A DNA stretch of 64,000 bases from Acidimicrobiia bacterium (GTDB taxonomy: Bacteria; Actinomycetota; Acidimicrobiia; Acidimicrobiales; Bin134), in contig VYCQ01000023.1 of the NCBI GenBank assembly GCA_009843865.1, positions 144,092 to 208,091 of the forward strand, in the 5' to 3' direction. The notes beneath the pieces were generated by a model, which saw nothing but the letters and a program-made list of their open reading frames with translations, made no database searches and had not been told where the DNA came from. This document shows, in pieces, positions 39,350-54,585 of the stretch. How positions within the stretch are numbered: the stretch's first letter is position 1; the number at the start of each line of letters is the position of its first letter. The position numbers and the translations under genes were made by a program.

Positions 39350-40234
39350 ATGAAGTTAACCAACAGCGTCGTTATCAGGTCTTTGGCACTGCTATTTGCC
39401 GTAGCTTTAGTTTGTATGGCTTGCAGCTCAGATAGCTCAACCGCGTCTCACACAGGGACACCTGTAACTAGCACGCCCAATCAAGCTCCAAGCGATATTA
39501 GCAGCGATCCAGCAACAACTTCACCCACCTCTGAAACCATGCAAGCTCAGACCCCTGTTCCTACTACTAGGGTTGAGCAGCCAGTACCTTTCGATCAGAG
39601 TCAAACCCCAGAGCCAGTTTCTGATTCTGCTGAAACACCAACACCGCAATCCGGGCAAAACTCTGCGCAGAACCCCTCAGCAACTCAAGCCCCAGAACCG
39701 CAAACAGAACCCCAGACCACCCCACCAACCGAGCAACAAGCTACGCCTCAACCCACCCCTACCAGGCCATTAGCTACACCATCGTCAAGCGCAACTCCCA
39801 CATCAAAACCAACACCAATCCCCGAATCGGATCTGCCATCCATCAACGTTATCAACGTTACCAGCGGCGCAACTGTAAACCTCGCAAGCTTTGCGCCAGG
39901 CCAAAAGCCCATTGTGTTGTGGTTTTGGGCACCCCATTGATCTACTTGCCGCCGGGAAGCATCCGGCCTCGAGCAGTTGGCTCGACAGAACAGCGACAAG
40001 TTCACCCTCATCGGCTTGGGGGCACAAGACAGCCTCTCGCACGCTGAGAGTTTCGTAAGCTCCACTGGTACTACCTTTACCATGCTTTGGGACTCATCAG
40101 GAGCCTCCTGGCGAGAGCTAAGTGTTTTTGGTCAACCCAGTTTGATCGTCATGGATCGCTATGGTCGCGAAACCGACCGCCGTGGTGGTGTTTCACCAAG
40201 TTGGATTCTGCACGCGATTGAAAACATTAATTAA
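39350..40234 (+). CDS. Putative selenoprotein: lipoprotein TlpA/DsbE-like thioredoxin with UxxC active site (UGA at 39938-39940)
   Basis: ORFs 39350-39940 and 39977-40234 share one frame; read-through gives WFWAPH-U-STCRREA...GQP, a complete thioredoxin fold; signal peptide with MAC lipobox and P/T/Q-rich linker. Confidence 0.8.
39951..39967 (+). promoter_or_regulatory. Candidate bacterial SECIS hairpin
   Basis: GCCGG-GAAGCAT-CCGGC starts 10 nt after the in-frame UGA. Confidence 0.6.
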
Positions 40235-52734: not shown

Positions 52735-53025
52735 TTAAGACCCGTAAACAGGAACCCCTTGGGCATATTTGACAGCGAACAAATCAACAACCTCACCCGG
52801 ATGAGCATGACGATTAGTAGCATCTTTGGAATAGAGCATCTCGCCGTTTACCTCCACATCGAAAATACCTGAGGTGCCGGTTATCAAGTACACTTTTTCA
52901 ATGATGTGCTGGTACTTCTTTAGTAAATCGTTAGCAGCGCTCACGGCGTGCTCGGAATAGTCTCAAGGGACACAGTAAATGATGGAAATGCTGTGTTTAT
53001 TTGTCATGGGGGATTCCGGACTCAT
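52735..53025 (-). CDS. Putative selenoprotein: Rdx (SelW/SelT/SelH-like) with CxxU motif (UGA at 52965-52963)
   Basis: Upstream in-frame extension reads MSPESPMTNKHSISIIYCVP-U-DYSEHAVSAANDLL...GTSGIFDVEVNGEMLYSK; TAGTAT 6 nt before ATG at 53025. Confidence 0.85.
52933..52952 (-). promoter_or_regulatory. Candidate bacterial SECIS hairpin
   Basis: AGCA-CGC-CGTGA-GCG-C-TGCT starts 10 nt after the in-frame UGA. Confidence 0.55.
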
Positions 53026-53052
53026 GTGGCAATACTAACGCCTAGCTACCGT

Positions 53053-54585
53053 CTATTGATACGTCACAGCAGTACCTGCGACAGTTGCTCTAGGGTTCAC
53101 AGATGCTCCAACGTCTCTGGTTTCTAAAATGTCCGCGATCTCGGTGCCTAACCCTGCCGACTCCACGAGTTCCACCAAGTTATCTGGATCACAGTCCATA
53201 GTTCCGGGAGCAGCAGGGTGACGACGAATCCAACCGCTGGTGGTGGGGGTTACCAACATGAAACAGCTTGAAGGGTGACCCTCGGCCGGGTTGGTATACC
53301 CATGCAACCCGCGCCCGTTCCACTCGGTGATGGTACTAGCAGCTTCAATCACCAGCTCTCGTGTCAACCCTCCACCGCTTAAGAACCTGGCCTTGTTCAC
53401 GGCCTCCTCAAACAGCAAAGCCGAGGCCCAACTAGACAACCCGATCAAGTCCAACTCGGCCTCTTCATCCACTTGCTCTCGCAATGAAAGCACGTACCTA
53501 ACCAACTCTACATTGTCGCCTGGTTCCTCAAAAGGCAACATGTTGATGCTGACCCACACATTTTGGTTTAACTCGCCAGCCCGCTCAGGCCAAGTTTGCG
53601 AGTAGCAGTCGGCCCCACAGTAAAAGAAAAACTGCCCCGACGACAGCTCATTATTCACTCTGCGAATTGCTGCTAAGTCCGCAGCGTTCAGTTGGTTGTT
53701 GGTTGCGCTTGCATCAACCAAACGTGTCCAAGCTTGCAACAACTCCAACATCCGCTCACTATCTGCTGTCCATGTCACAGAGCGCGCCCCGCTTCGCAGC
53801 AGTTCTAATGCCAAAGCATCGTAATCCTGCCCAACCACATCGGCAGTGGCCTGATGGACATACCTAAAGCCAGCCCCAGTGGCTGCCTCAATCTCTCTCT
53901 GTGCCTGATAAAACGCCACCGGCATGTCCAACACCACCGTTGCCACTGCATCAGTCAGCTCACTAAACCGTTCGCTTAAATACTGGGCAGGCCCGGCCTG
54001 CCACACTGTGTTGGAAACCGGATTGGACACGAAGGTCACCGGAGATTCCCTTCGCTTTGGGCTAAGAGCTGCCGCCGGAAAATCGGGTAGCTGACAAGAC
54101 TCCTCATTCAAATAATCCACGCCTTCACCGTCTTGCAGAGCATAAGACCCAACTAAGGCAAAAATGTCGCTCTCACATGCCTCTCGCATGACCTCCGCGT
54201 GGCGAAATACGTTGGCATCAAACAGCACAACCTCTACATCCCGCCCGCCTAGACCGCCTCTGTCGTTAATCGACCGGGCCCAAGCTCTCATGGCTAACCA
54301 GGCAGCCTCACTCCCCTTGGTGACAGCTTTGCTGTTGGTTATGTCGGCGATCACACCCAATCGCATCACCTCGTCGCTGAGGCCCGGAGAACGAGGCTTA
54401 GAGGGGTCGATCGCCGAGGCAGTGGGCTCTTCAAACACCGCAGGTGTGGCTGTGTTCAGATCTGATGCACCCAACACCGGGCCCTGCAAATCAGGCTTTT
54501 GGCAAGCTACAACCCCAGCTGAGAGGCCAACCGCAAGCATCAACCCAACTAGCCGCCACTTCCTCCTAGACATGTGTCGAAACAT
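53053..54585 (-). CDS. Orphan ABC-type substrate-binding lipoprotein (LivJ/Peripla_BP_6-like)
   Basis: Lipobox VVAC, GLSDEVMRLG, INDRGGLGGRDVEV, FALVGS; no permease genes adjacent. Confidence 0.75.
   Translation of the reverse strand: MFRHMSRRKWRLVGLMLAVGLSAGVVACQKPDLQGPVLGASDLNTATPAVFEEPTASAIDPSKPRSPGLSDEVMRLGVIADITNSKAVTKGSEAAWLAMRAWARSINDRGGLGGRDVEVVLFDANVFRHAEVMREACESDIFALVGSYALQDGEGVDYLNEESCQLPDFPAAALSPKRRESPVTFVSNPVSNTVWQAGPAQYLSERFSELTDAVATVVLDMPVAFYQAQREIEAATGAGFRYVHQATADVVGQDYDALALELLRSGARSVTWTADSERMLELLQAWTRLVDASATNNQLNAADLAAIRRVNNELSSGQFFFYCGADCYSQTWPERAGELNQNVWVSINMLPFEEPGDNVELVRYVLSLREQVDEEAELDLIGLSSWASALLFEEAVNKARFLSGGGLTRELVIEAASTITEWNGRGLHGYTNPAEGHPSSCFMLVTPTTSGWIRRHPAAPGTMDCDPDNLVELVESAGLGTEIADILETRDVGASVNPRATVAGTAVTYQ

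Follow-up and report, generated by a model that had tools for sequence, protein, structure and literature searches.

The question raised by this locus is whether a TGA codon at positions 52965-52963, on the reverse strand of the 64,000-nucleotide stretch of DNA analyzed here (the window), ends a reading frame or encodes selenocysteine (Sec) within one. Downstream of that codon lies a 69-aa open reading frame (ORF) at 52735..52944 (reverse strand) that starts with GTG 52944. The initial annotation had extended this ORF upstream through the one TGA and read the result as a 96-aa Sec protein of the Rdx/SelW type. We confirmed the extension, with the frame open to ATG 53025, and the coding sequence (CDS) spans 53025..52735 (reverse strand) with its TAA stop codon (52737-52735) included. 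Translation from ATG 53025 with TGA as U gave 96 residues with a single TGA (MSPESPMTNKHSISIIYCVPUDYSEH...GIFDVEVNGEMLYSK...). The redox motif of this product is I-I-Y-C-V-P-U, in which redox position 1 is Cys18 (TGT, 52974-52972, reverse strand) and redox position 2 is the TGA, or Sec21. The product also carries the motif G-I-F-D-V-E-V-N-G-E-M-L-Y-S-K. Both sequence signatures that the initial annotation named for the Rdx family are found, the YCxxU start as described and the G.FEV.VNG motif with D in place of E. Because gene callers stop at TGA, the public annotation of the window gene is a 69-aa stub from GTG 52944, and the four public gene calls that we found for close relatives are each a 69-aa stub as well. 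At a probability of roughly nine in ten, we read the locus as encoding a small oxidoreductase of the SelT/SelW/SelH (Rdx) family with a thioredoxin fold, 96 aa long (or 90 aa from Met7), with Cys18 and Sec21 as the redox pair of its putative activity.

The family assignment was examined with profile models. Pfam Rdx (PF10262) matched residues 13-81 of the read-through product with 55.8 bits, well above its cut-off of 22.6, compared to 34.6 bits for the 69-aa ORF without the extension. The product also passed TIGR02174 (CXXU_selWTH; 40.7 bits versus a cut-off of 34.2). Filing it under NF041051 (SelTWH_Campy), a Campylobacter-type equivalog, was rejected, as its 66.6 bits fall under the cut-off of 88. 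The sequence matches in the PDB were all Rdx-family proteins (2fa8, 2ojl, 3dex, 2oka, 2ljk, 2p0g, and 2obk), and their CxxC aligned on C-V-P-U.

With a 63-sequence alignment as input, AlphaFold2 returned a model with a mean pLDDT of 93 and a predicted order of beta1-alpha1-beta2-beta3-beta4-alpha2, where beta1 comprises residues 11-18 and alpha1 comprises residues 24-41. In this predicted model, C18-V-P-U21 lies in the loop that connects beta1 to alpha1. The best Foldseek matches in the PDB were the SelW-related structures 2fa8, 2oka, 2obk, 3dex, 2ojl, and 2p0g, with query-normalized TM scores of 0.73-0.81, target-normalized TM scores of 0.86-0.91, and rmsd values of 1.1-2.0 Å. Mouse SelW and then thioredoxins ranked below these bacterial structures. 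The predicted fold is the thioredoxin-like Rdx fold. The solved bacterial Cys-form Rdx proteins (2fa8, which is Atu0228; 2oka; 2obk; 3dex, which is SAV_2001; 2ojl; and 2p0g) have the same fold, but they carry a Cys-Cys pair where the window protein has CVPU and are 20-26% identical to it. To our knowledge, none of them has an assigned function. Mouse SelW (2npb) likewise presents CxxU on a thioredoxin-like fold (Foldseek E = 1.8e-3, TM 0.59) but is much more distant, at 16% identity. In addition, eukaryotic genes such as mammalian SelW place the SECIS element in the 3' UTR, whereas that of the window gene would lie inside the CDS.

The closest known system is the prokaryotic SELENOW-like family (PF10262/TIGR02174), which shares with the window protein its domain, a CxxU motif with Sec in second place, its size, and a marine habitat. 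Nothing essential differs between the two; particular to the window lineage are an N-terminus longer by 6 residues and a transcript that is probably leaderless. According to the available text of the GOS survey, SelW-like CxxU proteins were its commonest prokaryotic selenoprotein family, with 427 sequences (PMC2398784). The window protein is another member of this long-known and abundant bacterial SelW-like CxxU family.

We then asked where translation begins. The frame offers ATG 53025 and a second in-frame ATG encoding Met7 (53005..53007, reverse strand). A -10-like hexamer, TAGTAT, had been reported 6 nt before ATG 53025, and it is indeed present at 53032..53037 (reverse strand), separated from the start by the spacer tgccac. 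The hexamer and the lack of a Shine-Dalgarno sequence fit leaderless mRNAs of the actinobacterial type, in which TANNNT stands a few nt ahead of the start codon. Among the loci read in the genus, 36 of 37 have TANNNT exactly 6 nt before the start; the hexamer of one of them (L060) was read by eye, and L043 is the locus without it. The inner bases of the hexamer vary (GTA, CGC, ATA, GCC, and GTC). Outside the genus, the hexamer is found in only one of four loci, and two others have a Shine-Dalgarno-like GGAGG.

The spacing is also a property of the window genome as a whole. TANNNT occupies positions -12 to -7 at 6.4% of 1,522 first starts (ORFs of at least 150 aa) and at 0.23% of 8,171 internal ATGs. 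Other in-frame offsets gave 1.4-2.2% of first starts, values that are inflated because of the first-start-after-stop rule, as TAA and TAG begin with TA. The 6-nt spacing is the genome-wide mode, and leaderless transcripts seem to be common in this genome, judging from these counts. Offsets of -13 and -14 each account for about a further 3% of the first starts of long ORFs.

In the window, the conserved TANNNT-N6-start unit goes with ATG 53025 and not with ATG 53007. Since the spacing is kept to ATG 53025, six extra codons must follow the promoter-start unit in the window lineage. These codons, MSPESP, are unique to the window genome among the loci compared, and Met1 has no counterpart outside this lineage. 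The same selenoprotein could instead be started at ATG 53007, as a 90-aa protein made from a leadered mRNA or by co-transcription with the binding-protein gene upstream. In favor of that start, the genes of the relatives have 90 codons and all begin at the equivalent of Met7, 11 codons before redox position 1, and the uniqueness of MSPESP points in the same direction. The upstream gene (53053-54585, Peripla_BP_6) runs in the same direction, with its end at 53053, and because only 27 nt separate it from ATG 53025, transcription could read through from it. However, the promoter-start unit with its modal 6-nt spacing belongs to ATG 53025, and before ATG 53007 there is neither a TANNNT hexamer nor an obvious purine-rich Shine-Dalgarno sequence. 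We consider a start at ATG 53007 possible but rather unlikely. The leaderless mRNA from ATG 53025 that had been proposed at the outset draws support from its conservation in the genus and from the genome-wide spacing, and we regard it, together with a putative promoter role for TAGTAT, as fairly probable.

If the TGA encodes Sec, the genome should be able to decode it. The window genome (1.79 Mb in 43 contigs, 98% complete) contains selA (398 bits) and, adjoining it, selB (296 bits), both above their curated cut-offs. It also contains a tRNA-Sec with the anticodon TCA (68.9 bits, above cut-off) and selD (339.5 bits, above cut-off). The selD match (G000:C41:10676-11677, reverse strand, locus L010) has one in-frame TGA of its own, and its product, selenophosphate synthetase, is likely itself a selenoprotein. 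All of the sel genes sought were therefore found.

The TGA is conserved among relatives, which are kin and not independent samples. Of 41 related genomes drawn, 27 had the gene, each of them with TGA at redox position 2. A survey of the genus found the gene in 38 of 40 genomes, with an in-frame TGA every time, and TGA stood at redox position 2 in each of the 37 loci read (the G048 locus was left out of this count). Changes at the first, second, and third codon positions numbered 9, 7, and 21 over the 11 codons from the relatives' start to the motif and 56, 43, and 125 downstream of the motif. This bias toward third positions upstream of the redox motif implies that the upstream stretch is translated.

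Cys/Sec exchange is a mark of selenoproteins, and we looked for it by searching 1.84 billion proteins; of the 150 best representatives, 88 span the motif. Cys occupies both redox columns in 73 of these 88. Ten record C-x-x-W at the motif (P0012, P0018, P0044, P0074, P0077, P0080, P0088, P0089, P0136, and P0142), most simply read as a Sec TGA translated as Trp under a gene-calling code in which TGA is Trp. The remaining motif-spanning representatives comprise three with Y, S, or R and two unrelated repeat proteins. In the 63-sequence alignment, the sole invariant columns were C18 and C21. The other 62 of the 150 representatives fall short of the motif, and most of them are stubs of 42-89 aa that start just past it.

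Were the TGA a true stop, either an Rdx gene would have decayed into a pseudogene here or the only product would be that of the 69-aa ORF starting at GTG 52944. The public 69-aa calls in the window and its close relatives agree with that reading, and one congener (L060) has a TAA nonsense codon in this gene. However, the TGA and the frame upstream of it are kept in every relative with coding-type substitutions, the 69-aa product would be without strand beta1 and the entire redox motif, and the genome holds the Sec machinery. The 62 similar stubs among the 150 homologues are an annotation artifact to be expected when calls stop at TGA. We consider a true stop very improbable. Less probable still is that the TGA is read as another amino acid (Trp or Gly through reassignment) or is an assembly error for TGY, because the C-x-x-W records in 10 of the 88 homologues are outweighed by Cys in this column in 73 and by the tRNA-Sec and selB in the genome, because six relatives (L041-L046) terminate this same gene with TGA, so that TGA is still a stop there and global reassignment was rejected, and because four DNA runs have no variant at the TGA.

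The four runs belong to a single study, and as the source sample may be among them, they do not count as evidence independent of the assembly. With the TGA present in all of the relatives' loci examined as well as invariant in the runs, a sequencing error at 52963-52965 is excluded. Taken together, the Rdx profile match, the homologues at the U column, the Sec machinery, and the conservation of the TGA back the reading of this locus as a 96-aa Sec protein.

Decoding of a bacterial Sec codon calls for a SECIS element, and the initial annotation had placed a hairpin 10 nt downstream of the TGA. We found it there, within the CDS at 52933..52952 (reverse strand), as a stem of 7 bp interrupted by one bulge, with a 5-nt loop, C-G-U-G-A (52945-52941), 17 nt from the UGA. 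Its folding energy was -8.3 kcal/mol on 61 nt and -7.7 kcal/mol on 39 nt. The bSECIS rules set out in a 2026 review (PMC13188914) are an apical loop of 3-9 nt on a stem of 4-16 bp, a G as the first or second loop base that is usually followed by G or U, a UGA-loop distance of 16-37 nt, and an energy of -7.5 kcal/mol or lower. The window hairpin falls within all four of these constraints as worded there, for energy only narrowly. Its stability was not beyond chance relative to shuffled sequences, as 131 of 200 shuffles folded at least as well (z = +0.49).

When the relatives' sequences were folded one by one, 17 of 20 distinct sequences gave the same loop at this position; the 7-bp stems of L042 and L044 are perfect but in a shifted register, and the folds of L036, L045, and L046 differ. 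When the columns were held fixed, the support was modest, with 79% of cells paired versus 14-44% for slid partners. Compensatory change occurred at two pairs (for example, C-G to U-A in two distinct sequences), with a covariation score that was reached by 50 of 500 shuffles. RNAalifold on 27 sequences recovered only six pairs at -2.31 kcal/mol, a weak consensus that arises because the lower stem shifts register between lineages. Across 34 distinct genus sequences, third-position diversity was 0.095 over the ten codons that follow Sec21 versus 0.30 elsewhere, and of 81 ten-codon windows, those that begin at codons 13-16 had the lowest third-position diversity. Part of this conservation comes from the protein, since the hairpin overlaps the conserved peptide SEHAVSAA. 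The hexamer, too, would be weak on its own; judged by comparison of sequences, the hexamer, the TGA, and the hairpin are all significant features.

A scan of the whole window at Rfam gathering thresholds gave no matches, and ARAGORN found no tRNA in it. A 35-nt unitig covering the TGA and hairpin (52934-52968) was isolated in three of the four metagenome runs at 2-3.4 times the flanking depth, which suggests that co-occurring relatives may share this exact stretch.

In the mechanism that we propose, with the -10-like TAGTAT 6 nt upstream as its promoter, the mRNA would begin at or beside the first base of ATG 53025. During translation, SelB with Sec-tRNA(Sec) would bind the hairpin that begins 10 nt past the UGA and bring Sec to the ribosome, competing there with release factor. 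Once made, the protein would cycle between a reduced thiol/selenol state and an oxidized Cys-Sec selenenylsulfide, with electrons passed to or from a partner.

While reading the genus loci, we noted that redox position 1, which is Cys in the window, is most often TGA as well. Its codon is TGA in 29 of the 37 loci, TGC in 6, and TGT in 2. The loci with both TGAs (L023-L035, L037-L040, L048-L055, and L057-L060) encode U-V-P-U, compared to C-V-P-U in the window itself. Counted by genome, 29 of 38 congeners encode U-V-P-U, where G048 was counted from a one-TGA match. All five of the U-V-P-U genomes tested have selB and tRNA-Sec above cut-off. The first UGA of these congeners comes 11 codons after the start, and their two UGAs, 9 nt apart, lie 26 and 17 nt from the hairpin loop. 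As 26 nt still falls between 16 and 37 nt, a single hairpin could suffice for the two codons. In one of these two-TGA copies, L060 (G055:C1:3096000-3096275, reverse strand), TAA replaces the Tyr codon right before the first TGA. This copy looks broken, or there is an assembly error at that place; judging from this TAA before the motif, loss of the gene can apparently occur.

To follow redox position 1 through the genus, we used a gene tree in which the position-1 codon was masked. This tree requires at least two Cys/Sec switches (bootstrap range, 2-3). The three-member Cys clade that contains the window (support, 99/99) is nested in a two-Sec group with 89/82 support, which hints that Cys18 of the window may be a secondary Sec-to-Cys replacement. 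The tree analysis also flagged the odd base composition of the window copy.

Beyond the genus, we looked for the two-TGA form in 401 genomes of the phylum. Pfam matches to Rdx numbered 101 in 94 of these genomes, and none had two TGAs; 75 had one TGA and 26 had none. With the 12 rows from 11 unpublished genomes set aside (G293, G445, G073, G056, G103, G202, G280, G228, G322, G390, and G136), the counts were 65 with one TGA, 24 with none, and 0 with two.

We put only a little better than an even chance on the following account of the lineage as a whole. Its usual form would be the two-Sec U-V-P-U protein of 29 of the 38 sponge-associated congeners, a diselenide-capable protein made from a leaderless mRNA with one SECIS decoding both UGAs, and the Cys of the window would be secondary, in a genome-reduced sublineage. 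A diselenide protein, SelL, has reportedly been described. In the tables of PMC9312934 and PMC13188914, prokaryotic SELENOW-like proteins (PF10262) are CxxU with one Sec only, and prokaryotic UxxU appears only in Prx-like, metal-binding/mercuric-reductase-like, and FmdB-family proteins. For eukaryotes, the available text of PMC7539508 gives UxxU SELENOW in amphioxus and Ostreococcus. Full-text searches of the literature brought up no bacterial SelW-like protein with UxxU. The U-V-P-U of the congeners is a two-Sec redox motif like those of amphioxus and Ostreococcus SELENOW and of the prokaryotic Prx-like, metal-binding, and FmdB-family proteins; as the congeners are bacterial, both of their UGAs must be served by a hairpin inside the CDS.

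The loci of close relatives come from metagenome-assembled genomes of Candidatus Poriferisocius, Acidimicrobiia, Acidimicrobiales, and Ilumatobacteraceae, and the more distant relatives are Chloroflexota. The genus Candidatus Poriferisocius belongs to the Acidimicrobiales (Actinomycetota), and the DNA runs that contain the locus are labeled sponge metagenome. In the window, the neighbors of the gene are the Peripla_BP_6 binding protein, a convergent P-type ATPase, and a Cys/Met PLP enzyme, an arrangement common only to the nearest sublineage. The distance from the binding-protein gene to the Rdx gene is about 0.95 kb in the nearest relatives (L021 and L022) versus 27 nt in the window (53026-53052). 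The window genome measures 1.79 Mb at 53.7% GC, compared to 2.2-4.1 Mb for its congeners, and its small size and the short gap fit genome reduction. The two-Sec relative L094 is flanked by nitroreductase, enoyl-CoA hydratase, P450, and thiolase genes. No functional partner was indicated by gene context in the window, the nearest sublineage, or the L094 neighborhood.

Four things are added to what was known of the family: the gene model is corrected, a leaderless start gains support, the window yields another likely selenoprotein, and a two-Sec variant is recognized in the congeners. The value of the window gene is mostly one of annotation, as a redox selenoprotein is publicly recorded only as a 69-aa stub. 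The same truncation affects 62 of the 150 best representatives, and the selenoproteomes of symbionts like this one are therefore systematically undercounted. If the two-Sec reading of the congeners is true, their pair of adjacent Sec codons with its single hairpin would test how far one bacterial SECIS reaches, and the two-Sec SelW-like form would test what a diselenide contributes relative to a selenenylsulfide when the scaffold is otherwise the same. With CxxU and UxxU versions in sister species, these can be compared directly.

To look for further selenoproteins in the window, we ran a crude scan for ORFs that read through TGA. It gave 42 candidates, mostly out-of-frame noise, and 12 of them were checked with Pfam, of which only one was selenoprotein-like. 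This is a 294-aa lipoprotein-like read-through ORF at 39350-40231 (forward strand) with its TGA at 39938-39940. A Pro/Thr/Gln-rich linker precedes a redoxin-type C-terminal domain, which matched AhpC-TSA, Redoxin, and Thioredoxin_8 with 44, 43, and 31 bits, respectively. The TGA falls within W-A-P-H-U-S-T-C, placing UxxC at the site of the thioredoxin-fold CxxC, and the ORF is probably the other hidden selenoprotein implied by the initial annotation.
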